Notes: a model not told the origin generated them from the letters alone. Counted from the first letter of the stretch, positions 2,810-63,170 are shown. The stretch: DNA of 64,000 bases from Dehalococcoidia bacterium (GCA_050010555.1 JBEKKV010000003.1:16241-80240); one strand, 5' to 3'. Made by a program: numbers and translations.

Positions 2810-2828
2810 ATTATACCAGCATTGTCAA
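2810..2828 (-). promoter_or_regulatory. Candidate extended -10 promoter (TGGTATAAT) for the HTH gene
   Basis: Read on the minus strand: TTGACA, then a 7-nt spacer, then TGG-TATAAT, about 40 nt upstream of the ATG. The -10 is perfect. The -35 spacing is non-canonical, so this would be TGn-extended -10 type. Confidence 0.35.
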
Positions 2829-2846
2829 CCAAAGGCCAGCGAATTG

Positions 2847-4196
2847 TCAGCGCGAAGCTCCCTTTCTTCGAGAGGCGGCGATCCCCGCAGCCAACAGCGC
2901 TGCGCCCGCGGCCAGCAGCGCGATGAGGTAGGGTTCGTCGCGGCCAGCGCTTGCCGCCGAGCCGCCGCCCGTATTCGGCGCGGCGACGAGGTTTGAGGAA
3001 GGCTGAGCGCTGGTGGTGGCCGACGGCCCTGGCGTCTCGACGATCGCGTCCGGCGGCATCGAGGGGCCAACGGCACACCCCGCGATATCGATGCCGTCAA
3101 TTCGTTGTCCGTCGGCGAGGGTTACTTGCCTGGAGGCCGGCTGGTAGGGAGGATTGCTGTTGGACGGATCCTGATAGCAGGCGACTTTGAAACGGAGGGT
3201 GTAGGTGCCGGCGGGTAGGTTGTCGAACCGATAGGTGCCGTCATCGCAAAGAGGGGATCCGGGGATGACGTACAACACGCCCACTTCTGGCACGTCTCGG
3301 TAGAGGTCTAGGTAGTCGCCCATGGGGTATTGAGCGCCGGGCGAGCACCAGAGACGTTCTCCGTCATTCCACACGCCATCGTGATTGTCGTCAGAGAAGA
3401 GTCTTCCGCTGATCGTCGATTCTCCACTCAAGAAGTGAAATCCCACCTCGACATTCAGAGTATCCGCTGTGCCCGTCAGGTCGACGGCGTTGGTCGTATC
3501 TTCGGGCGCACCCGGCGTGCCCGGCAGGTCAGGAGTCATGAACGTCTTCTCGTGGAACGTGGCTGCCAAAGAAGACGGCGGAGTCAGCTCAAGGAAGAAG
3601 TGCCCAGGCGGAAGGCCGACGAAATTGAAGCGGCCGGACTGATCGCTTGCCGATGTAATATCGCAGTAGGCCGCCCACAGCCTGTCTTCAGGTCCGCCCT
3701 GCCCATATATCCTTACTTTCCACCCATCAAACCTAGGTTCCCCGGCATCGTCTCGGCCATTCTCATTCTGATCGTTCACAAGGACGCCTGAGACGGTCTT
3801 GGTTCCGCCGTCGAACACGCCAAGGTCAATCCCAGTTGAATCTGTTCCCCTTGGCACGTCGCGGGCGAACGTGGTGGCAGTGGCACAGGGTATCGTACTG
3901 TCCAAGCTCATGCGGACCACGTAATCGACATTGGAAGACGATTGAACGCCCGTGAAGGAGTAGTGACCGTCAGAGTCGGTTCTTGCGTGTTGGACCGGGC
4001 CCCCAAGGAGCTCAACGGTGGCACCCGGAGCTGGCGGTTCACCCAGGTCCCGCTGGCCGTTCAGGTTGAGATCAAAGAACACAGTCCCAGATATGGTGTC
4101 GCCGCCGGCTCCGACCGCCGGACTGACGCCCTTCAGGGCGACAGCCGCGAGCGCGACGGCGACACAGATTCCCAGAAGCACGAGTCTCTTGTGCAT
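2847..4196 (-). CDS. Secreted cell-surface protein with three SdrD-B/Cna-B-like repeats and a C-terminal sortase-like sorting signal
   Basis: Signal peptide 'MHKRLVLLGICVAVALAAVA'. Repeats 'SGTVFFDLNLNGQRDLGEP', 'SGVLVNDQNENGRDDAGEP' and 'SGRLFSDDNHDGVWNDGE'. The C-terminus has 'APNTGGG', an 11-aa spacer, an 18-aa hydrophobic stretch and an 'SRRKGASR' tail. GGAGGT lies 4 nt before the ATG. Confidence 0.6.
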   Translation of the reverse strand: MHKRLVLLGICVAVALAAVALKGVSPAVGAGGDTISGTVFFDLNLNGQRDLGEPPAPGATVELLGGPVQHARTDSDGHYSFTGVQSSSNVDYVVRMSLDSTIPCATATTFARDVPRGTDSTGIDLGVFDGGTKTVSGVLVNDQNENGRDDAGEPRFDGWKVRIYGQGGPEDRLWAAYCDITSASDQSGRFNFVGLPPGHFFLELTPPSSLAATFHEKTFMTPDLPGTPGAPEDTTNAVDLTGTADTLNVEVGFHFLSGESTISGRLFSDDNHDGVWNDGERLWCSPGAQYPMGDYLDLYRDVPEVGVLYVIPGSPLCDDGTYRFDNLPAGTYTLRFKVACYQDPSNSNPPYQPASRQVTLADGQRIDGIDIAGCAVGPSMPPDAIVETPGPSATTSAQPSSNLVAAPNTGGGSAASAGRDEPYLIALLAAGAALLAAGIAASRRKGASR

Positions 4197-5079: not shown

Positions 5080-6513
5080 TTGAACGACATAGTCCCCCGA
5101 CTAAAGAGAGTGCTGAATCCACGCAGCATCGCCGTCGTCGGCGACAAGCGGGCGATGGGCTACTTCTGGCTGCGCAACATGAGTCCCTTTAAGGGAAAGC
5201 TCTACTCCGTCCAGATCGACCCTAACGAGATGCCGGGCATCGCGGAGCTGGGCGTCTCGAACTACTCGAGCCTGCTCGACGTGCCGGACGAAATCGACTA
5301 CGTGGTCTGCGCCGTGCCGCGCCAGATCGCGCCCCGCGTCGTCGCCGACTGCGTCGCGAAGAAGGTGGGCGGCGTTTCGCTGTTCACGTCGGGCTTCGCG
5401 GAGACGGGCGAAGCGGAGGGCATTCGCTTGCAAGAGCAGATAGCGACCACGGCGCGCGAGGGCGGGATCGTCCTCGTCGGGCCGAACTGCATGGGCATCT
5501 ACAACCGACGGCTCGGCGTGCGGCAGTCGATCGAGCAGCCGGCCGGCGACGAGGGCGATGTCGGCTTCATCTCGCACAGCGGCACGCACGCAATTAACTT
5601 CAGCCTCATCGGCGCGGTGCACGGCGTGAAGATCAGCAAGTCGGTGAGCGCGGGAAACTCGGCGGTCGTTGGGCCGGCCGACTATCTGGAGTACCTAGCG
5701 CAGGACGCGGAAACGAAGGTCATCGCGATGTACCTGGAGGGCGTGCAGGACGGCCATCGCCTCTTCGACGTGTTGCGCCGCACGACGCCGCTGAAGCCGG
5801 TGGTAGTATGGAAAGGCGGCCTATCGGAGGGCGGCCGGCGGGCGATGTTCTCGCACACAGGCGGGCTGGCGACGTCGGAGGCGGGCTGGCAAGCGCTGGT
5901 GCGGCAGACCGGGGTCGTCGCGACGGACAGCCTCGACGAGACGCTGGACGCGGTGAAGGCGCTGCTCTTCACGAAGCCGGCGACGGGTCGTCGCATGGGG
6001 CTGGTGGCGCTCACCGGCGGGCAGTCGGTGGTGATTACTGACGCGTTCGAGCGCGAGGGGCTGGAGGTGCCGCTCCTCAGCGAGCGGTCGTACGCAGAGC
6101 TTGCGGGTTTCTTCAACATCGTCGGCGGGAGCTATCGCAACCCGCTGGACGCCGGCGGAACGCTGGGATTCGGCGCGTCGCCGGAGAACCTGCAGCGCCT
6201 GCTTCGCGTGCTGGAGAACGACGAGAATATCGACGCGGTGGCGGTCGAGGTGTCGAGGCGGATGATGGCGCGGCAGGCGCCGTCGGGAACGCCGTCGGCG
6301 GACTGGCTGCCGGAGATGCTGGGCCGGCATCGCGAAGAATCGGTCAAGCCGCTGATGGTGGTGCTGCACCCCGGGCACCTGGAGTCGACTGTGGCGCAGG
6401 AGCGCGAGAAGTACGTGGAGCGCGGCATCGCGACGTTCGCGGGCTTCGAGCAGGCGGCACGGGCGTTCGCGCGCGCGGTGCGGTATCGACGGTTTGTGGC
6501 GGGGATGGAATAG
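5080..6513 (+). CDS. ADP-forming acetyl/acyl-CoA synthetase, alpha subunit (CoA-binding plus succinyl-CoA-synthetase-like domains)
   Basis: 477 aa. N-terminal CoA-binding Rossmann ('SIAVVGDKR') and 'GPNCMGI', 'FISHSGT' ligase-CoA motifs. The start is TTG at 5080 or GTG at 5110, uncertain. Confidence 0.7.
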   Translation: MNDIVPRLKRVLNPRSIAVVGDKRAMGYFWLRNMSPFKGKLYSVQIDPNEMPGIAELGVSNYSSLLDVPDEIDYVVCAVPRQIAPRVVADCVAKKVGGVSLFTSGFAETGEAEGIRLQEQIATTAREGGIVLVGPNCMGIYNRRLGVRQSIEQPAGDEGDVGFISHSGTHAINFSLIGAVHGVKISKSVSAGNSAVVGPADYLEYLAQDAETKVIAMYLEGVQDGHRLFDVLRRTTPLKPVVVWKGGLSEGGRRAMFSHTGGLATSEAGWQALVRQTGVVATDSLDETLDAVKALLFTKPATGRRMGLVALTGGQSVVITDAFEREGLEVPLLSERSYAELAGFFNIVGGSYRNPLDAGGTLGFGASPENLQRLLRVLENDENIDAVAVEVSRRMMARQAPSGTPSADWLPEMLGRHREESVKPLMVVLHPGHLESTVAQEREKYVERGIATFAGFEQAARAFARAVRYRRFVAGME

Positions 6514-6526
6514 TGGTGTGGTGGCG

Positions 6527-6608
6527 TCGGCGCGACGAGCAAAGCGAGGCGCGCAACAAGAACGCGATCAGCGCACTCGTCGACAACCGATCGAACATGC
6601 CATGGAAG
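6527..6608 (+). repeat. Intergenic repeat element, copy A (TTCGGCGCGACGAG...GAGCGCAACAAGAACGCGATCAGCG...CATGGAAG)
   Basis: Shares a ~25-nt near-identical core and flanking modules with copies at 20694-20786 and 60245-60339. This copy lacks the short hairpin module. Confidence 0.55.
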
Positions 6609-6654
6609 CCGACGTCTCGGTCACGTCGTAGGTGTCGAATACGGGAGGGATTCC

Positions 6655-7743
6655 ATGAAGGCAGCCGTCTTCTACGGAGCGAACCAGCCGCTCGCCATCG
6701 AAGAGGTCGATATTGCGTCGCCGAAGAGGGGCGAAGTACTCGTCAAGATCGCCGCTTCCGGACTGTGCCACACGGACCTCCATTTCATGGAAGGCTTCTT
6801 CCCCTGGCCGGCGCCGGCCGTGCTCGGCCACGAAGCCGCCGGCGTCGTCGAACAGGTCGGCGAGGGCGTGAACAGCGTCCAGCCGGGCGACCACGTCGTC
6901 CTCTCGTCCGCGCCTTCGTGCGGCGTCTGCCGCTACTGCGTGGCCGGCAAGCCCTATCTCTGCACCGCCGCCGCCGGATCGCATCAGATGAGGGACGGCA
7001 CCAGCCGCCTGGCCCTCCACGACGACGGCAAGCCCCTATTCCACTTCCTCGGCGTCTCCTCTTTCGCCGAATACGCGGTCGTCTCGGAGCTGGCGATGGC
7101 GAAGGTGCGCGACGATGCTCCGCTGCAAAGCGTTAGCCTCGTCGGCTGCGCCGTCGCGACGGGCGTCGGCGCGGTCCTCTACACGGCGGGCGTCACAGCG
7201 GGCAAGAGCGTCGCTGTTTTCGGCTGCGGCGGCGTCGGGCTGAACGTGGTTCAGGGGGCGAACCTGGTCGGCGCCTGCCCGATCATTGCCATCGACACGA
7301 AAGACGAGAAGCTGGCGCTGGCGAAGCAGTTCGGCGCCACGCACGTCGTGAATCCGGCGAAGGAGCATCCCGTATTGAAGGTCCACGAGATCACCGGCGG
7401 CGGCGCGGACTTCGCCTTCGAAGCCATCGGCGACGTGGACGTGCTCGGCCAGGCGTTCGACTCGCTGGACCGCGGCGGCATGGCGGTCATGGCCGGCGTG
7501 CCGCCTTTCGGCTCGAAGTACGCCGTCGACACAATGAACCTCTTCAACGACAAGACCCTCCGCGGCTGCGTCCTCGGCTCCGTGAACATTCGCCGCGACT
7601 TCCCGATGCTGGTCGACCTGTATATGGCGAAGCGGCTAAAGCTGGACGAACTGATGACGCGGACGTTCCCGCTGGAAGCGATCAACGAGGCGTTCGAGCT
7701 GGTAAAACGGGGAGAGGTGGCGCGCGCCGTCGTGACGTTCTAG
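6655..7743 (+). CDS. Zinc-dependent alcohol dehydrogenase (class III/medium-chain family)
   Basis: 'GLCHTDLH', 'GHEAAGVVEQVGEGV', structural-zinc Cys cluster 'CGVCRYCVAGKPYLC' and a GxGxxG cofactor site. GGGAGGG lies upstream of the ATG. Confidence 0.8.
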   Translation: MKAAVFYGANQPLAIEEVDIASPKRGEVLVKIAASGLCHTDLHFMEGFFPWPAPAVLGHEAAGVVEQVGEGVNSVQPGDHVVLSSAPSCGVCRYCVAGKPYLCTAAAGSHQMRDGTSRLALHDDGKPLFHFLGVSSFAEYAVVSELAMAKVRDDAPLQSVSLVGCAVATGVGAVLYTAGVTAGKSVAVFGCGGVGLNVVQGANLVGACPIIAIDTKDEKLALAKQFGATHVVNPAKEHPVLKVHEITGGGADFAFEAIGDVDVLGQAFDSLDRGGMAVMAGVPPFGSKYAVDTMNLFNDKTLRGCVLGSVNIRRDFPMLVDLYMAKRLKLDELMTRTFPLEAINEAFELVKRGEVARAVVTF

Positions 7744-20096: not shown

Positions 20097-20597
20097 CTAC
20101 TCCTCGGCGACGGCGGCCTCTTCGCGGACTTCGATGCGCTTTAGCTGGTCGGGGCTGTCCAGGTAGTCGATGTAAAGGACGCCCTCCAGGTGGTCCATTT
20201 CATGCTCGAGGGCCTGGGCGAGAAGGTCGTCGCGGGCCTTGACTCGGAAAGGGCGGCCTTCGCGGTTGAGCGCCTTGACGGTGACGGCCTCGGAGCGCGT
20301 TATCTCGGCGGCGTAACCCGGCACGGAGAGACAGGCTTCTTCGAGGCGTCGCTCGCCGGAGCGCTTGACGAACTGGGGGTTGATGAGGACGATGACCTCT
20401 TCCTCCGGTATGCCGATTACGGCGATGCGCTCGGACCGGCCTACCTGGGGCGCTGCCAGGCCGACGCCGTGAGCGTCATGCATCGTCTCGACCATGTCGT
20501 CGATGAGGCGTTGGACGGAGGCGTCGATCTTGCGAACGGCGTGGGTCTTGTGCCGCAGGGCGGGGTCGCCGACGAGTCGGAGTGGCAGGACAGCCAA
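20097..20597 (-). CDS. def: Peptide deformylase
   Basis: 'GVGLAAPQVG', 'EACLSVPG' and 'HEMDHLEG' motifs. Started at the internal TTG (Leu55 of the listed ORF) preceded by AAGGAG, which gives a typical 166-aa Def. Confidence 0.8.
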   Translation of the reverse strand: MAVLPLRLVGDPALRHKTHAVRKIDASVQRLIDDMVETMHDAHGVGLAAPQVGRSERIAVIGIPEEEVIVLINPQFVKRSGERRLEEACLSVPGYAAEITRSEAVTVKALNREGRPFRVKARDDLLAQALEHEMDHLEGVLYIDYLDSPDQLKRIEVREEAAVAEE

Positions 20598-20693
20598 GGT
20601 TCGGAGCGCTCCTTGTTGATCTATACATCTATTGTAGCGGACTGTCGGAAGGACGAAAAGGAGCCGGAGCGTGAACCAGCAGCGGAGGAGGAT

Positions 20694-20786
20694 TTCGGCG
20701 CGACGAGTCCGCCAAAGGCGGAGAAGGAGCGCAACGAGAACGCGATCAGCGTACGACACAACGTCGCCACGAGCGATTCATGGAAG
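20694..20786 (+). repeat. Intergenic repeat element, copy B
   Basis: TTCGGCGCGACGAG + CCGCCaaaGGCGG hairpin + GAGCGCAACGAGAACGCGATCAGCG ... CATGGAAG. It lies between the rplS stop and the def start, on the strand opposite to both genes. Confidence 0.55.
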
Positions 20787-20811
20787 GGAACTAGTCGCGA
20801 GAAAGGGGAGA

Positions 20812-21165
20812 CTACTCGGGGCGGGCCGTCGTCTTCTCCTTGATGCGGGCGGCTTTTCCGGCCAGGCCGCGAAGATAGTACAGCCGGGCCCGTCGCACCT
20901 TGCCTCGCCGCGTGATCTCGATCTTCTCCAGGCGCGGCGAGTAGAGCATGAACGTGCGCTCGATGCCGACGCCGTGCGAGAGGCGGCGAACCGTGACGTT
21001 GGCGCTGGGTCCGCCACGTCGCGATCGGATCACGACGCCCTGGAAGACCTGCGTGCGTTCACGGTCCCCCTCGACGACTTTGGCGCTCACCCTCACGGTA
21101 TCGCCGATGCCGTAGGCGGCGATTTCCGGGTTCGTTTTCAGTTCGACTAGCGAGTTTGCATCCAA
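20812..21165 (-). CDS. rplS: 50S ribosomal protein L19
   Basis: '[15 protein letters not shown]...[12 protein letters not shown]...[15 protein letters not shown]...[14 protein letters not shown]' matches bL19. Start is TTG (Leu154 of the listed ORF) with GGAG 8 nt upstream. Confidence 0.85.
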
Positions 21166-38623: not shown

Positions 38624-38715
38624 CGGAGGCAAATGCTTATGTTGAGGCCCCGGCGAATCGGCGTCTTGGGGCGGCGGATTCGGCCCTTCTTGACAGAACA
38701 CGCCACGCAACTTGA

Positions 38716-38761
38716 CCACAATATGTTGGGTTTTGCCCCTTGACAACCTCTATATGTTGTG
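38716..38761 (+). promoter_or_regulatory. Two candidate NrdR boxes (CCACAATATGTTGGG at 38716-38730; ACCTCTATATGTTGTG at 38746-38761) overlapping promoter elements
   Basis: AT-rich partial palindromes in an otherwise GC-rich region. They resemble the NrdR-box consensus acaCwAtATaTwGtgt and are spaced ~30 bp apart. Box 2 sits in the spacer of a TTGACA(38740)-17nt-CAGAAT(38763) promoter. Confidence 0.5.
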
Positions 38762-38774
38762 CCAGAATCCCCCC

Positions 38775-39422
38775 ATGCGATGCCCCTACTGTACTTCTCA
38801 GGACACAAGGGTGATCGACTCGCGGGAGGCCGAAGACGGCATCCGGCGGCGGCGGGAGTGCGCGGCCTGCGGCGAACGCTTCACGACGTACGAGCGTCCG
38901 CTGGCCACCGGCCTGCTCGTCGTCAAGAAGGACGGCCGTCGCGAGGAGTACACGCGCGAGAAGGTGCTGCTGGGCATCCGCAAGGCTTGCGAGAAGCGAC
39001 CGCTGGCAGTGGGGACGCTGGAGGCGGTCGTCGATGAGATAGAGGCGGTGCTCAACGAGCAGGGGCTCGCCGAGGTGTCGAGCCGCGACATCGGCGAGAT
39101 GGTGATGGGGCACCTGCGGCAGTTGGACCAGATAGCCTACATCCGTTTCGCCAGCGTCTACCACGAGTTCGCCGATCTCGACGACCTGCGGGACGAGGTC
39201 GACGCGCTGGAGGCGACGCTGGGGACTGCGGAGGGCACAAGCCAGCCGCCGCTCATCCCGGAAGAGGAGTTGCAAGGCCTGGCCAGGTCACCGGCGTGGC
39301 GGGCCTTTCAGTACGGCAAGGGGGCAAAGACTCGTTATCGGCAGAGGCGGGCCGTCTCGGCGGCCGCCGGCGAGGCGAAAGGAAGCGCCTCGTCGTCCGC
39401 TCGACGGGGCGGCCCAGGTTAA
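38775..39422 (+). CDS. nrdR: Transcriptional repressor NrdR (zinc ribbon plus ATP-cone), with a ~60-aa C-terminal extension
   Basis: 'MRCPYCTSQDTRVIDSRE...RRRECAACGERFTTYER' zinc ribbon and ATP-cone ('VVKKDGRREEYTREKV'). Start is Met22 of the listed ORF. Confidence 0.85.
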   Translation: MRCPYCTSQDTRVIDSREAEDGIRRRRECAACGERFTTYERPLATGLLVVKKDGRREEYTREKVLLGIRKACEKRPLAVGTLEAVVDEIEAVLNEQGLAEVSSRDIGEMVMGHLRQLDQIAYIRFASVYHEFADLDDLRDEVDALEATLGTAEGTSQPPLIPEEELQGLARSPAWRAFQYGKGAKTRYRQRRAVSAAAGEAKGSASSSARRGGPG

Positions 39423-39850: not shown

Positions 39851-42565
<2,715 letters not shown>

Positions 42566-42746: not shown

Positions 42747-45098
42747 ATGGCGACCAAAGCTCACCCCAACTCCATTGCTCTCTCCGATAACGCCCGCGTG
42801 GTGCTCGAGCGGCGCTACCTGGCGAAAGACGAGCGCGGCCGCACCGTCGAGACGCCGGAGCAGCTATTCCGACGCGTCGCGCACAACATCGCCGGCGCCG
42901 AACAAGCGTACGGCGGCGCGCAACAGGTGGACTTCTGGGAGCAGCGCTTCCTCGACGTGATGACGAGCCTGCGCTTCCTCCCCAACTCGCCGACGCTAGG
43001 CAACGCCGGTCAGCCGCTGCAGCAGCTCGCTGCCTGCTTCGTCCTGCCGGTCGAGGACTCGATGGAAGGCATCTTCGGCGCCATCTGCAACATGGCGGTG
43101 ATCCACAAGAGCGGCGGCGGCACCGGCTTCTCGTTCAGCAGGCTGCGACCGGCTGGCGACATGGTCCGGAGCACGGCGGGCCTCGCGAGCGGTCCGGTGT
43201 CGTTCATGAAGGTCTTCGACGCGGCAACAGAGGCGATCAAGCAGGGCGGCACGCGGCGCGGCGCCAACATGGCGATCCTCAACGTCGAGCACCCGGACGT
43301 CGAAGAGTTCATCCGCGTCAAGTCGGACATGGTGACGCTGACGAACTTCAACATCTCGGTGGGCGTGAACGAGCGGTTCATGGAGGCGGTGGAGCGCGAC
43401 GAAGAGTTCTTGCTCGTCAGCCCGCGCACGCGGAAGCCGGTCGGCAAGCGACGGGCGCGGGCGGTCTTCCGCCTCATGGTGGAGAACGCCTGGCAGAACG
43501 GCGACCCCGGCCTCGTGTTCATCGACCGCGTGAACCGCGACAACCCGACGCCGCGGCTCGGACCCATCGAGGCGACGAACCCGTGCGGCGAGCAGCCGCT
43601 GCTGCCGTACGAGTCGTGCACGCTCGGCTCGATCAACCTCTCGCGATTCGTCAAAGAAGGCGAGCGCGAGGTCGACTGGGAGGCGCTGGCGGCGACGGTG
43701 CCGGTCTGCGTGCGCTTCCTCGACGACGTCATCGACGTGAACCACTACCCGATGCCGGAGATCGCGGCGATGACGCTGAAGACGCGGAAGATCGGCCTCG
43801 GCGTAATGGGCTGGGCCGACCTCCTCTTCCGGCTTCGCACTCCCTACGACTCCGACGAGGCGCTGAAGCTCGGCGAGCAGATGATGGCGTTCATCCAGGA
43901 GAAGGCGGACGCGGCTTCGGCGGAGCTGGCGCAGGCGCGCGGGACGTTCCCGGCGTGGGAGGACAGCGTCTACGCGGCGGGGCGGGAGCGACAGCCGCTG
44001 CGCAACTCGACTCGTACGACGGTGGCGCCGACCGGCACGCTGTCGATAATCGCGGACTGCTCGGGCGGCATCGAGCCGGTGTTTTCGCTGGCGTTCACGC
44101 GTCAGCACTTCCTCGACCCGCACAATCCCAGGACGGCGACGAAGCTGACAGAGGTGAACAAGCACTTCGAGCGCGTCGCCAAAGAGGAAGGCTTCTATTC
44201 GAAAAGGCTGATCGATGCGCTCGCGGCAGGCGCCAGCCTCCGCGACCAGCCGAAGGCGCCGGAATGGGCAAAAGGCGTCTTCGTGTCGGCGCACGACGTC
44301 GCGCCGGAGTGGCACGTGCGGATGCAGGCGGCGTTCCAGCGCCACACGGACAACGCCGTGAGCAAGACGATCAACTTCCGTCAGGAGGCGACGCCGGACG
44401 ACGTGGAGCGCGCATACCTGCTGGCTTACCACGAGGGCTGCAAGGGGGTCACGATCTATCGCGACGGGTCGCGGGAAATGCAGGTGCTGTCCCACACGAC
44501 GGCGAGGGGCCCCGAGCAGCAGGAGGCGATAGCCGCGGAGCGGTCGCTCGGAGCGGGCCCGCCGTCGCTGCGTCCGGGCGAGCCGTACCGACGCCGCCTG
44601 CCGGACCAGAGGGCGTCGCTGACGCACAAGTTCCAGGTCGGCGACCAGGAGGGATACCTCACAGTCGGCCTGTACGACGACGGCAACCCGGGCGAGGTGT
44701 TCGTCACCATCTCGAAAGAGGGGTCGACGATCCGCGGGCTGATGGACTCGGTAGCGGTGCTGACGTCGCTGGCGCTGCAGTACGGCGTGCCGCTGGAGGA
44801 CCTGGCGCGCAAGTTCGAAGGGACGCGCTTTGAGCCGTACGGGTTCACGAACAACCCGGAACTGCGTCAGGCCACGTCGCTGGTCGACTACATCTTTCGC
44901 TGGCTGGAGGTGCGCTTCGGCGAGGGGAAGAAGGAGCCGCCCGCAACCGGGCCGTCGCGCGGCCGCAAGAAGGGGGAGCCTCTGCCGGCGAGCGGGGACA
45001 TCAGCACGGGGGTGGCGTGTCCGGACTGCGGGTCGCTACTCGTATTCGCCGAGGGCTGCCTGGCGTGCCGCTCCTGCGGCTACGAGCGCTGCGCGTAA
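42747..45098 (+). CDS. nrdJ: Adenosylcobalamin-dependent ribonucleotide reductase (class II, NrdJ), paralog 2
   Basis: 783 aa. 'NSPTLGNAGQP', 'ACFVLPVEDSMEGIF', 'GGGTGFSFSRLRP' and 'NPCGEQ' resemble Thermotoga-type NrdJ. C-terminal 'CPDCGS...CLACRSCG' zinc ribbon. Confidence 0.85.
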   Translation: MATKAHPNSIALSDNARVVLERRYLAKDERGRTVETPEQLFRRVAHNIAGAEQAYGGAQQVDFWEQRFLDVMTSLRFLPNSPTLGNAGQPLQQLAACFVLPVEDSMEGIFGAICNMAVIHKSGGGTGFSFSRLRPAGDMVRSTAGLASGPVSFMKVFDAATEAIKQGGTRRGANMAILNVEHPDVEEFIRVKSDMVTLTNFNISVGVNERFMEAVERDEEFLLVSPRTRKPVGKRRARAVFRLMVENAWQNGDPGLVFIDRVNRDNPTPRLGPIEATNPCGEQPLLPYESCTLGSINLSRFVKEGEREVDWEALAATVPVCVRFLDDVIDVNHYPMPEIAAMTLKTRKIGLGVMGWADLLFRLRTPYDSDEALKLGEQMMAFIQEKADAASAELAQARGTFPAWEDSVYAAGRERQPLRNSTRTTVAPTGTLSIIADCSGGIEPVFSLAFTRQHFLDPHNPRTATKLTEVNKHFERVAKEEGFYSKRLIDALAAGASLRDQPKAPEWAKGVFVSAHDVAPEWHVRMQAAFQRHTDNAVSKTINFRQEATPDDVERAYLLAYHEGCKGVTIYRDGSREMQVLSHTTARGPEQQEAIAAERSLGAGPPSLRPGEPYRRRLPDQRASLTHKFQVGDQEGYLTVGLYDDGNPGEVFVTISKEGSTIRGLMDSVAVLTSLALQYGVPLEDLARKFEGTRFEPYGFTNNPELRQATSLVDYIFRWLEVRFGEGKKEPPATGPSRGRKKGEPLPASGDISTGVACPDCGSLLVFAEGCLACRSCGYERCA

Positions 45099-45106
45099 CG
45101 AATAGC

Positions 45107-45808
45107 ATGCCAACATCGAACGCAGGGACCAGCGCCATCGCCGCGAATCTGCGATGGGTTCGCGACCGCGTAGACGCCGCCTGCCGGCGCGCCGGACGCT
45201 CGCCCGCAGACGTCACTATCGTCGGCGTCAGCAAGGGCTTCCCCGTCGAGGCCGTCGTCGCAGCGTGGCAGGCCGGGCTGCGCGATGTCGGCGAGAACCG
45301 CGTCCAGGAAGCCGCCGCGAAGCTCCCTGCGGCGATGGCACAAGGAGCCGCGTTCCGTCGCCACCTCGTCGGCCACCTTCAGACCAACAAGGTAAAGACC
45401 GCAATCGACCTGTTTGATATAATCCAGTCAGTGGATTCGCTCCGCCTGGCGGAGGCCATCAGCAGCACAGCCGGCAAGTCAATAAGCGTCCTGCTGGAGG
45501 TGAACGTCGCGGCTGAAGAGTCGAAGTACGGCCTGAAGCCGGACGAAGTGCCGCAGGCACTGGAGCGCATTCGCTCTCTGCCGAACATCGACGTAGTAGG
45601 GCTGATGACGGTCGCGCCGGCGGCGTCCGATGCAGAGCAGGTGCGACCGGTCTTCCGGCGGCTGCGGGAGATGGCGGAGTCGCTTGGCGTGCCGGAGCTA
45701 TCGATGGGCATGAGCGACGACTTCGAGGTCGCGGTGGAAGAGGGCGCGACGATGATAAGGATCGGACGCGCTATCTTTGGGCCACGGCCCGAGCGGAGTG
45801 AAGAATGA
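45107..45808 (+). CDS. yggS: YggS-family pyridoxal-phosphate homeostasis protein
   Basis: 'VTIVGVSKGFPVEAV', 'GENRVQE' and 'HLVGHLQTNKVK'. This is the alanine-racemase-fold single-domain PLP protein. Confidence 0.8.
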   Translation: MPTSNAGTSAIAANLRWVRDRVDAACRRAGRSPADVTIVGVSKGFPVEAVVAAWQAGLRDVGENRVQEAAAKLPAAMAQGAAFRRHLVGHLQTNKVKTAIDLFDIIQSVDSLRLAEAISSTAGKSISVLLEVNVAAEESKYGLKPDEVPQALERIRSLPNIDVVGLMTVAPAASDAEQVRPVFRRLREMAESLGVPELSMGMSDDFEVAVEEGATMIRIGRAIFGPRPERSEE

Positions 45809-55690: not shown

Positions 55691-55767
55691 TGGTGCGCCC
55701 GGCGGGATTCGAACCCACGGCCTCAGCCTCCGCAGGGCTGCGCTCTATCCAGCTGAGCTACGAGCGC
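55691..55767 (-). tRNA. tRNA-Arg-like; the anticodon reads GCG, which is atypical
   Basis: Complete cloverleaf with 7-bp acceptor, D-arm GCTC/GAGC, anticodon stem CAGCC/GGCTG with loop CUGCGGA, T-arm GTGGG-TTCGAAT-CCCGC and encoded CCA. The body closely resembles bacterial tRNA-Arg. Confidence 0.7.
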
Positions 55768-55821
55768 CCCAATCAACTTTCGGGCTACGGACGGTCCGGC
55801 CCGGCTAGATTCGCTCTTCAA

Positions 55822-55907
55822 TGGTGCCGAAGGTGGGATTTGAACCCACACGCCCTTACGGACACTACGCCCTGAACGTAGCGCGTCTGCCATTCCGCCA
55901 CTTCGGC
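55822..55907 (-). tRNA. tRNA-Leu (anticodon CAG)
   Basis: 86 nt with a long variable arm. Anticodon stem CTACG/CGTAG with loop UUCAGGG. T-loop TTCAAAT. CCA encoded. Confidence 0.9.
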
Positions 55908-55917
55908 AAGGCCTGCA

Positions 55918-55994
55918 TGGTGGGCGGTACAGGGCTCGAACCTGTGACCTCTTCCGTGTGAAGGAAGCGCTCGTACCAACTGAGCTAACCGCCC
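55918..55994 (-). tRNA. tRNA-Val (anticodon CAC)
   Basis: 77 nt. Acceptor GGGCGGT/ACCGCCC. Anticodon stem CTTCC/GGAAG with loop UUCACAC. T-loop TTCGAGC. CCA encoded. Confidence 0.9.
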
Positions 55995-57684: not shown

Positions 57685-57760
57685 TGGTGGCAGCGGAGGG
57701 ATTTGAACCCCCGACCAAGGGCTTATGAGTCCCCTGCTCTACCGACTGAGCTACGCTGCC
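57685..57760 (-). tRNA. tRNA-Met (anticodon CAT); elongator-type G1-C72, could alternatively be tRNA-Ile2 (lysidine)
   Basis: 76 nt. Anticodon loop CUCAUAA. T-arm GGGGG-TTCAAAT-CCCTC. CCA encoded. Confidence 0.85.
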
Positions 57761-60229: not shown

Positions 60230-60244
60230 CTACGGGGCTCTCAG

Positions 60245-60339
60245 TTCGGCGCGACGAGCCCGCCTCGGGCGGACGAGGAGCGCAACAAGAACGCGACCAT
60301 CGCACACCCCACTGCCGTTGCGAAGGCGACATGAAAAGT
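60245..60339 (+). repeat. Intergenic repeat element, copy C, with a further partial 5' module at 60372-60398
   Basis: TTCGGCGCGACGAG + CCGCCtcgGGCGG hairpin + GAGCGCAACAAGAACGCGACCATCGCAC ... CATGAAAAG. Downstream, TCGGCGCGAGGCttcGCCTCGCGC repeats the 5' module as a perfect 9-bp hairpin. Confidence 0.55.
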
Positions 60340-60452
60340 CGACGCAACATGAGGGTCGGCTGCTTGCAGTAGCGTGGTGTCGGCGCGAGGCTTCGCCTCG
60401 CGCATCAATGATCCCGAATTCCTAAATGATTTCGACGGCGCGACAGCTTCAC

Positions 60453-62258: not shown

Positions 62259-63170
62259 ATGGACGACCAAGTTGGTCAGTTCCTTCACTATCTATCGGTC
62301 GAAAAGGGTTCTTCCGCCAACACAATCGCCGCTTACAGTATCGATCTGACACAGTTTCACGGCTACCTCTTTGCCTCGCGCAACGGCAACGGCGATCCAC
62401 TGTGGAGCGGCGTTAACCGCGCCGCCGTCGTCGATTACATCTCCGACCTCAAGCGCCGCCAGTACGCCGAGGCTACAGTCGCCCGCAAGATCGCGGCGAT
62501 AAAGGCCTTCTTCGCCTTCCTCCACCAGGTCGAGGGCGTCGTCAAGCAGAACCCGACCGAGAACGTCGGCTTCCGCGTCCCCAAGTCGCTGCCGAAGCCG
62601 CTCTCGATCAAAGAGGTCGACGAGTTGCTGGAGCAGCCGGCCCGCTCATCTACCCCGGAGGCCAAGCGCGACAAGGCGATGCTCGAGCTTCTGTACGCGA
62701 CGGGCATGCGCGTCACTGAACTCGTAACGTTGGACATGAGCAGCGTTCATACGAACGCCGACGCGCCGCACGTCCGCTGCATGGGTAAAGGGTCGAAGGA
62801 GCGCACGATACCCATCCACAAGGACGCGCTCGAGGCCATCGAGGAGTACCTGGACGATTCGCGTCCGCGGCTGGTACATGATGCGCATGAGCCGGCGCTC
62901 TTCGTTAACCGGCGTGGCGATCGCCTCACGCGGCAGGGCTTCTGGCTGATACTGAAGGGCTACGCGAAGAAAGCCGCGATCAACAAGTCGGTAACGCCGC
63001 ACACCTTGCGCCACAGCTTCGCCACCCATATGCTGAGGGGCGGTGCGCCTTTACGTAACGTCCAGGAGCTTCTGGGGCATGCAAACATGTCGACGACGCA
63101 AGTCTACACGAAGCTCACGGACGACATGGTGCGCCAGGTTTACGAGAAAGCACACCCTCGAGCGAAGTGA
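62259..63170 (+). CDS. Tyrosine site-specific recombinase XerC/XerD
   Basis: N-terminal core-binding domain and a catalytic domain with 'HTLRHSFATHMLRGGAPLRNVQELLGHANMSTTQVYTKL' (R..H..R..H..Y pentad). Confidence 0.8.
   Translation: MDDQVGQFLHYLSVEKGSSANTIAAYSIDLTQFHGYLFASRNGNGDPLWSGVNRAAVVDYISDLKRRQYAEATVARKIAAIKAFFAFLHQVEGVVKQNPTENVGFRVPKSLPKPLSIKEVDELLEQPARSSTPEAKRDKAMLELLYATGMRVTELVTLDMSSVHTNADAPHVRCMGKGSKERTIPIHKDALEAIEEYLDDSRPRLVHDAHEPALFVNRRGDRLTRQGFWLILKGYAKKAAINKSVTPHTLRHSFATHMLRGGAPLRNVQELLGHANMSTTQVYTKLTDDMVRQVYEKAHPRAK

Follow-up and report, generated by a model that had tools for sequence, protein, structure and literature searches.

A modular intergenic repeat with a conserved hairpin module in uncultured peat and soil Chloroflexota

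The described repeats that come closest to the element reported here include the BOX elements of Streptococcus pneumoniae, built as boxA-boxB(n)-boxC, the bacterial miniature inverted-repeat transposable elements (MITEs) such as Correia/NEMIS, ERIC and bcr1, and the small noncoding repeats (SNRs) of Deinococcus radiodurans, which, in a GC-rich genome, form intergenic mosaics of 60-200 nt whose ends are conserved and whose interior varies. In repetitive extragenic palindromes (REPs), the unit is one palindrome of 20-40 bp whose stem of 5-13 bp has an unpaired GTAG or CGTC at its foot, and copies mostly form inverted dimers, head-to-head or tail-to-tail (Di Nocera et al. 2013, PMC3733652). We analysed a stretch of 64,000 nt from a Dehalococcoidia bacterium (GCA_050010555.1 JBEKKV010000003.1:16241-80240; hereafter, the window), for which a preliminary description had proposed a repeat family with three intergenic copies, here called A, B and C. 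Our analysis supports that reading as sound and the finding as real. The family is previously undescribed, although of an ordinary kind, and is confined to one genus-level clade of uncultured peat and soil Chloroflexota, known from metagenome-assembled genomes (MAGs) labelled Dehalococcoidia or ‘Chloroflexia’. With a probability of roughly 0.6, we take it for a non-coding, non-autonomous mosaic interspersed repeat of the kind represented by BOX elements, bacterial interspersed mosaic elements (BIMEs) and MITEs, spread in trans or by recombination.

The window holds three copies, all on the + strand and alignable over ~95 nt. Copy A, a short form at 6527-6615 recognised by its sequence and by a covariance model (92.4 bits), lies 14 nt past the stop codon of an acyl-CoA synthetase subunit gene and 40 nt ahead of the start codon of an alcohol dehydrogenase (ADH) gene. 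Copy B, also a short form (20695-20793, 74 bits with the same model), occupies the spacer between rplS and def, antisense to both genes, its 3′ end ~20 nt from the rplS stop codon. Copy C is a long form of ~160 nt (60246-60404), recognised by sequence, covariance model and long-form alignment, which begins 17 nt past the uvrC stop and leaves 49 nt to the stop codon of DUF72, the convergent gene on its other side. The places, strand and neighbouring genes are those given in the preliminary description (the genes were confirmed with Pfam and the gene table of L151, one of the contigs of relatives that we cite by L numbers). Copy C, however, had been ended at 60339, and its long form reaches a terminal hairpin at 60383-60403.

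Searched for with a tolerance of up to 3 mismatches, the shared 25-nt core, GAGCGCAACRAGAACGCGAYCAKCG, matched the window three times, each time with at most one mismatch, against no match in 100 dinucleotide-preserving shuffles. Box1, the 14-nt segment upstream of the core, is exact or one letter off in all three copies; taken alone, with up to 2 mismatches, it is not significant in the window (9 found vs 3.5 expected). Two matches to box1 only, at 43394 and 25959, fall inside genes and lack the core. The covariance model, built from 20 family members, recovered exactly copies A, B and C from the 64 kb, with nothing further above 12 bits. Conservation is concentrated in a 5′ module of ~45 nt (box1, the right arm of its stem, a linker and a mini-hairpin, the stem tip removed), which is 87-93% identical among the three copies, as opposed to only 56-61% in their tails.

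An alignment of 20 copies and RNAalifold consensus folding provided the anatomy. Box1, GCGCGACGAG, and the opening third of the core, CGAGGAGCGC, pair into a stem, P1, in which tandem G·A pairs alternate with canonical ones: GCGC, tandem G·A, C-G, tandem G·A and G-C (GCGC-GA-C-GA-G…C-GA-G-GA-GCGC). The tip of P1 is variable and exists in at least four types, namely GC-GAA-GC, with C-AAA-G as its variant in copy A; TCC-GAAG-GA; TCCGCC-NNN-GGCGGA, a perfect 6-bp helix in copies B and C; and one or two GAGCCCAGACGGGC units, extra hairpins of peat relatives that number 0-2 across the family. The GC hairpin that had been called optional does vary, but it is actually the variable tip of this conserved, longer stem, and it is not absent from copy A, as had been thought, since copy A keeps a minimal tip. 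Directly 3′ of P1 stands the invariant linker AACRAGAAC, followed by P2, a mini-hairpin of 3-4 bp (GCGA-YCA-KCGC). The tail is poorly conserved up to its end, …CGAA-N5-6-CATGGA(AG); in L149, the next copy begins right after CATGGA, a junction that fixes where the short form ends on its 3′ side. The long form, seen in copy C and ten other copies, continues for an extra ~70 nt (…TCGACGCAACATGAGG…TAGCGGCGTGGGTTC) and ends in a GC hairpin, GCGCGAGGC-TTC-GCCTCGCGC, which in L143 and L061 is replaced by unrelated hairpins. The first arm of this terminal hairpin and its upstream context (GGTTCGGCGCGAGGC) repeat the 5′ end of the element (TTCGGCGCGACGAGC), and copy C carries TCGGCGCGA as a direct repeat at 60246 and again at 60380. 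CAUG/CAUG and CACUGCCG/CGGCGUG are predicted as further candidate helices of the long form. The unit thus measures 90 nt in its short and ~160 nt in its long form, within a range of 90-170 nt, and contains two to three different hairpins.

These parts can be placed on the + strand of each copy. In copy A, P1 with its minimal tip (GCGCGACGAG-C-AAA-G-CGAGGCGCGC) spans 6530-6554 according to RNAalifold and to inverted-repeat logic (L130); the linker, AACAAGAAC, occupies the invariant alignment columns at 6555-6563; P2, GCGATCAGCGC, follows at 6564-6574 as consensus pairs; and the alignments place the tail-end box, CATGGAAG, at 6601-6608. The consensus fold puts P1 of copy B, with a degenerate right arm (GAAGGAGCGC), at 20698-20732, and sequence and folding locate the perfect helix inserted in it, TCCGCC-AAA-GGCGGA, at 20708-20722; the linker AACGAGAAC and P2, GCGATCAGCGT, closed by a G·U pair, extend over 20733-20752 (alignment and consensus pairs). 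Within the window, CCGCCNNNGGCGG occurs only inside copies B and C. For copy C, consensus fold and inverted repeats define P1 at 60249-60283 and the inserted helix CCGCC-TCG-GGCGG at 60259-60273, and alignment and consensus fold define the linker AACAAGAAC with P2 (GCGA-CCA-TCGC) at 60284-60303. Inverted-repeat and long-form comparison trace its extension, …GACGCAACATGAGG…TAGCGTGGTGTCG, through the terminal hairpin (60339-60403), and the hairpin itself, an inverted repeat with arms complementary at 9/9 positions, covers 60383-60403.

Relatives carry additional variants. L162 has an extra perfect palindrome, CCTGCCGGCAGG (CCTGCC-GGCAGG), just after P2 (3822-3840, minus-strand reading), and a G-to-C change in its box1 (GGCCCGACGAG) breaks one outer P1 pair. 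A second short hairpin unit, GAG-CCC-AGAC-GGG-C or GGCC-AGAC-GGCC, was observed in L119, L125, L127, L132, L142 and L149; it stands one or two times within the P1 region of peat copies and once after a tail (L125), and in L149 it is found on the minus strand at 612-637 and 883-911. This unit is absent from the window (4 one-mismatch matches vs 3.9 expected) and may be a small REP-like unit nesting in the larger repeat.

The motif is not limited to the window, and the proposal of a new intergenic repeat family is borne out by ~30 further copies in related Chloroflexota contigs. They come from close relatives only and include loci with two or three copies and contigs with an exact RplS match. 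A genome-collection scan with the 20-nt core returned at least 117 loci and, among the matches listed, four true members, each with a box1 ahead of its core; two are contigs of the MAG ‘Dehalococcoidia bacterium SPRUCE 654’ and two are regions of OY969814.1, a 2.28-Mb chromosome of ‘uncultured Chloroflexia bacterium MFD01299.bin.1.79’. Scanning Joint Genome Institute (JGI) metagenomes with a box1-gap-core pattern gave 33 loci, of which 13 are true members, and most of these come from SPRUCE peat. No match to the repeat turned up among viral contigs or in phage and plasmid records, and a phage or plasmid origin was rejected on these grounds. Weak covariance-model matches of 10-17 bits are presumed to be chance. 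Most of the other core matches in the genome collection were conserved Pseudomonas coding sequence or chance: the 20-nt core, GCGCAACCAGAACGCGATCA, occurs exactly within a coding sequence (…EKNERNQNAIMRLLDEIE…) of dozens of Pseudomonas species (e.g., L001 269-288), which is an unrelated coincidence.

All copies are located in spacers, and all four types of spacer are occupied, in both orientations. Copy A and L149 lie in the sense direction between co-directional genes, and copy B, L061, L143 and L134 lie antisense in such spacers; convergent spacers hold copy C, L119/L125 and L142, and divergent ones L145/L122 and L022. The preliminary description had stressed the common orientation of the three copies, which is true of the window, but it has a chance probability of 1/4 and a relative has both orientations on one replichore: on OY969814.1, L104 (+) and L061 (-) are 25 kb apart and share the same GC skew. 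Orientation is therefore not tied to replichore, even though 9/12 independent loci agree with GC skew, and a replication-linked orientation of the Chi, KOPS or IS200 type is unsupported. Where copies cluster, they are always arranged head-to-tail (L104, L127, L130, L132 and L149); L130 has a tandem of two long copies that are 93% identical to each other, and L149 has a short-long-short array.

Copy number differs among very close relatives at three loci. Ordered by RplS identity to the window, the rplS-def spacers contain one short copy at 100% identity (the window and L151-L155), a long and a short copy at 97% (L104), one long copy with an extra palindrome at 96% (L162) and one or two long copies at 94% (L130, L163). 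No copy is present at 93% (L156, a 120-nt spacer from the same sample as L151), 90% (L164), 87% (L157), 85% (L165) or 84% (L158), nor elsewhere in ~80 kb from relatives with RplS identity ≤93%. At locus A, orthologues of copy A occupy the same place in L127 and L132, and in both contigs a further, long copy precedes the short one. The third locus is the junction between nrdJ and yggS, which comparison with L061, and Pfam for the gene at 42747-45098, identify as an empty site in the window (45096-45109). Here, only 8 nt (45099-45106) separate the nrdJ stop (gene 42747-45098) from the yggS start (45107), which suggests translational coupling, and the junction of L061 (MFD01299) measures ~217 nt (L061 2424-2640) and encloses an antisense long copy. 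Unrelated filler of 12 + 24-37 nt flanks that element, and a new GGA Shine-Dalgarno sequence precedes yggS. Locus C presents yet another pattern: between the window and L135/L102, the element is kept with its P1 tip swapped, and the spacer DNA on both sides is unalignable; the flanking genes are ~97% identical between the window and L135.

We consider the modelled P1 hairpin well supported, more by the swapping of tip helices than by covariation, as a structure that + strand RNA or single-stranded DNA (ssDNA) would adopt. Seven of the ten P1/P2 pairs never vary, and two, both in P1, covary (G-C to A-U or G·U; C-G to U-A or U·G), amounting to eight covarying cells, a number that 0/500 shuffles reach. 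Overall, 98.4% of the P1/P2 cells are paired, and slid controls collapse. The consensus fold reaches -12.4 kcal/mol on the + strand vs -4.7 kcal/mol on its complement for the short module, and -34.9 vs -29.5 kcal/mol for the long form. Folded as single sequences, copies A (z=-0.02) and C (z=+0.44) are no better than shuffles, and copy B has z=-2.39. RNAalifold found no consensus structure in the tail, and in the long form, covariation of the helices is slight apart from the wholesale replacement of the terminal hairpin.

Among the options raised at the outset, namely a small RNA (sRNA) family, a REP/BIME-like element or a protein-binding site, the evidence favours the second, in the form of a mosaic repeat. 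We favour it because of the narrow clade, the gain and loss between near-identical genomes, the head-to-tail arrays, the modularity, and the lack of both an orientation preference and a promoter. Copies sit in any spacer in either orientation, form arrays, and were gained or lost among very close relatives. Spread could have occurred through a trans-acting enzyme that recognises the invariant stem foot, the linker and P2, or through recombination or gene conversion, and unequal crossing-over between box1-like direct repeats, which stand at both ends of long forms and in adjacent copies, would shift local copy number. With tails and flanks decaying around a 5′ module that is still 87-93% identical, this module is probably the part that is recognised or selected. 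As a secondary, predicted effect, hairpins that are co-transcribed with a gene probably act as 3′-end or terminator-like structures. Judging from the sequence, it is plausible that neighbouring genes are affected by 3′-end hairpins, by minus-strand termination and, in L061, by disruption of nrdJ-yggS coupling.

Several observations weigh against a mosaic repeat of this kind. Its ends share only a short GC-rich match, GCGCGA(C)G(A)GC, and offer no convincing terminal inverted repeats; this match arises because the 3′ hairpin is itself a palindrome, and the ends are better described as direct repeats. No target-site duplication is seen at nrdJ-yggS, the one clean pair of empty and filled sites (TAA-CGAATAGC-ATG in the window vs L061). 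Neither a transposase, a REP-associated tyrosine transposase (RAYT), TnpB nor another mobilising candidate was found in the window (Pfam on ~30/54 open reading frames (ORFs); L151 table), so that the scanned ORFs show no mechanism of mobility. A density of 3 copies per 64 kb is modest. The stronger + strand fold hints at a strand-specific role as RNA or ssDNA, seven G·U cells would become C·A on the other strand, and the 5′ module, including its single-stranded 9-mer, is conserved as strongly as a functional RNA or a protein-binding site would be. It is conceivable, if doubtful, that the 5′ module, with its stem of tandem sheared G·A pairs, AACRAGAAC and the mini-hairpin, is a new strand-specific recognition structure in RNA or ssDNA, serving either as the handle of a new kind of non-autonomous mobile element or as the protein-binding core of a new multicopy sRNA family of this clade. 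In the former case, movement would need neither terminal inverted repeats nor target duplications and might rely on, say, an ssDNA enzyme that recognises hairpins.

Much of the same evidence bears on the rather unlikely alternative that the copies are multicopy small non-coding RNAs, or RNA modules in neighbouring transcripts, acting on the + strand, in which P1 would serve as a stem for protein binding, AACRAGAAC would be exposed for recognition or as a seed, and the long-form terminal hairpin would be a terminator without U residues. The better + strand fold of both short module and long form, the two covarying P1 pairs with 98.4% of cells paired, the swapping of whole helices at the P1 tip and the terminal hairpin with structure kept, and a 5′ module far better conserved than tails and flanks are all consistent with such RNAs. 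The copies antisense to both neighbours (B, L061, L143 and L134) belong here as well, in that their + strand expression needs a promoter of its own. Yet no sigma-70-like promoter was found around A, B and C, in a scan limited to that promoter type, and the 32 nt upstream of box1 are not conserved between copies. A U-tract following any hairpin is equally missing from the + strand of the three copies. The whole-element folding of A and C, no better than that of shuffles, and the invariance of most stem pairs, which makes them uninformative, speak against functional RNAs too. Absence at RplS identities ≤93% and polymorphism within the clade would be unusual for a functional sRNA, and it is repeats that typically have tandem arrays and a mosaic composition.

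Readings that place the function on the minus strand or in duplex DNA explain less of the anatomy. In RNA read on the minus strand from a convergent upstream gene, the P2 hairpin would be followed by GUUCUUGUU, the linker complement, and then by the C/U-rich, rut-like complement of P1, and the whole might serve termination or 3′-end protection, which we hold to be improbable. The sole terminator-like site flagged by our scan is in fact on the minus strand of copy C (GTGCGATGGTCGCGT+TCTTGTTG), where P2, with 6 pairs including 2 G·U, precedes TCTTGTTG, the complement of the invariant linker; the invariant 8-mer TTCTYGTT is unusually T-rich for a genome of 65% G+C; and at 7/11 independent loci the 3′ side of the element lies 0-50 nt from the stop of a convergent gene (rplS, DUF72, cysK-like, nrdJ and others). 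This proportion is no different from the 50% expected by chance, however, and copies A, L149, L145 and L022 point towards the beginning of a gene. P2 is no longer than 3-4 bp, the scan flagged neither A nor B, the consensus fold is weaker on the minus strand, and P1, its tip variation and the long-form extension would be left unexplained. More improbable still is a double-stranded DNA site for a regulator or a nucleoid-associated protein, marking a regulon or organising the chromosome. Near-invariance over ~45 nt in otherwise diverged spacers, the presence of some copies in divergent promoter regions (L145, L022) and the co-orientation of the three window copies with positive GC skew would agree with such a site. 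The neighbours have no common theme, though (acyl-CoA synthetase/ADH, rplS/def, uvrC/DUF72, nrdJ/yggS, pfk, selB, kdp and cysK), most copies stand at gene 3′ ends, copy number at a given locus varies, and orientation is unlinked to replichore; purines predominate in both P1 arms on one and the same strand, and in duplex DNA the arms are therefore not palindromic. A small peptide, such as a hydrophobic minus-strand product with …LIAFLLRSS…, is barely credible. In each of the three copies, a minus-strand ORF does extend over the core (6344-6598, 20621-20770 and 60241-60408), and the three share (L/M)(I/V)AF(L/S)LR, but these residues merely follow from DNA identity, and the substitutions occur in clusters and for the most part change the amino acid. 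Tip indels of 4, 9, 10 and ~28 nt shift the frame between box1 and core and break every frame, a conserved ATG yields an ORF of 7 codons in the consensus, no ORF has a start and a stop that are both conserved, and the frame of L130 is interrupted by a stop. A peptide on either strand is thus effectively refuted, in agreement with the preliminary description.

Comparison with known elements likewise left the family without a match, as first proposed. At gathering thresholds, Rfam 15 returned only 4 tRNAs from the whole window; a permissive scan of copy C gave only Guanidine-III, at 15 bits vs the 36 required, and L149, with its 3 copies, matched nothing at E≤1. The repeat is neither a tRNA or rRNA fragment nor a characterised REP family. 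A tRNA-like origin was considered on account of some short-tail complements, GGCG-TTCGATT-CGCC, that resemble a T-arm; they belong to one or two copies only and match no tRNA model. A riboswitch or leader RNA was set aside because no relation exists among the neighbours, to which many copies lie antisense or convergent. A sigma-54 promoter (TCGCAC-N5-TTGCG in long forms) and an extracytoplasmic function (ECF)-type promoter (GAAC…CGTC), both judged by eye, were dismissed, the former because its -24 GG is not conserved and the latter because its spacing is 12 nt, not 16-17. An integron attC site (RYYYAAC…GTTRRRY) was dismissed as well, since the GCGCAAC of the repeat departs from it and the integron context is absent.

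The genes of the window are housekeeping genes only, among them the dcw cluster, secDF, nrdR/nrdJ, recA/recX and RNase Y. Pfam identifies the genes around copy A as a CoA-ligase-type (ADP-forming) acyl-CoA synthetase subunit (5080-6513) upstream and a Zn-ADH (6655-7743) downstream; copy B is flanked by def (20097-20597) and rplS (20812-21165), both on the minus strand according to Pfam and the L151 gene table, and copy C by the convergent uvrC and DUF72 genes. A tyrosine recombinase of 303 aa (62259-63170, + strand), with Phage_int_SAM_1 and Phage_integrase domains and the size and architecture of XerC/XerD, is the sole recombinase seen in the window, and nothing links it to the repeat. Two class II-type ribonucleotide reductase large-subunit genes with TSCPD domains are adjacent (39851-42565 and 42747-45098), and an NrdR-like repressor gene (38712-39422) lies upstream of both. 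Four tRNA genes were found on the minus strand, three clustered at 55694-55994 and one at 57688-57760. Because all 8-kb bins have a positive GC skew (0.03-0.08), the whole window is probably on one replichore, with the + strand leading.

Spacers that contain the repeat also revealed other signals. A -10-like TACAAT at 20631-20636 on the minus strand, ~30 nt upstream of the TTG start of def, is invariant in six related rplS-def spacers while the remaining spacer diverges; def is thus probably served by a separate promoter that lies downstream of the repeat. In L145 (1870-1898), TACAAT stands 7 nt upstream of the ATG of the gene after the repeat (GCTACAATCGCCGACATG) and resembles a promoter from which a leaderless mRNA would start. 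The sequence CGACGGCGCGACAG (60433-60446), which separates copy C from the stop codon of DUF72, may be the lone relic of a box1-like motif (GGCGCGAC) or a chance occurrence, the spacer being rich in G+C.

The scientific value of this repeat is modest: it adds a GC-rich, head-to-tail type with a tandem-G·A stem to the catalogue of bacterial mosaic repeats, and it is shown inside a tightly coupled operon junction (nrdJ-yggS). Wider interest would follow only if the 5′ module were a functional RNA or a new mobilisation signal. In practical terms, the signature and the covariance model can be used to mask or annotate the repeat in peat Chloroflexota, and since copy number differs between near-identical genomes, the repeat is a marker of very recent genome change. 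It probably also breaks metagenome assemblies of these organisms. L163 (JBEKXP010000203.1, SPRUCE 654) ends ~40 nt after a long copy in the rplS-def spacer (2824-3049), and many short contigs carry copies, which suggests that the repeat fragments short-read assemblies of the clade.

Considering the described systems again, the repeat resembles MITEs in falling within 50-500 bp, in being non-coding and intergenic, and in its insertion polymorphism between close relatives; MITEs can also sit inside operons and be co-transcribed, as can this repeat. It differs in that its identity is uneven along its length (5′ module 87-93% vs tail 56-61%) and that no parent insertion sequence was found for it, and it further departs from MITEs in having no convincing terminal inverted repeats and no target-site duplication at nrdJ-yggS. 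With BIMEs and REPs, it shares GC-rich imperfect extragenic palindromes, often at gene 3′ ends, clustered and in mosaic with short motifs, as well as proposed roles in termination and mRNA stability; CGTC-type REPs are likewise without a dedicated transposase. Its unit of 90-170 nt and its head-to-tail arrays are different, however, and no RAYT was seen in the scanned window ORFs. The REP tag is missing, the foot of P1 being flanked by (T)TCG and AAC and that of the terminal hairpin by GGTTCSS and A; GTAG is present in some long forms only, 15-18 nt upstream of the terminal hairpin. With no tag, no inverted dimers and too great a length, the repeat is not a REP family in the sense of Di Nocera et al. 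(PMC3733652).

A further comparison is with BOX elements. Both are intergenic and non-coding, ~100-200 nt long, with a variable number of internal hairpin modules; both are predicted to form stable stem-loops on transcription, have no transposase of their own, are restricted to a lineage, and vary in presence or absence between strains. They have no sequence similarity, the host of this repeat has 65% G+C, and BOX has no counterpart to its tandem G·A stem and invariant single-stranded 9-mer. The ends A and C of BOX are mutually complementary, similar to terminal inverted repeats, whereas the ends of this repeat are direct repeats of the box1 type. SNRs, to which we liken it by description only, have the same mosaic intergenic build in a GC-rich host, with unrelated sequences. 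In being modular, in having variable internal hairpins and in being strictly extragenic, the repeat sides with the mosaic elements of the BOX/BIME type, as a functional class and not by homology.

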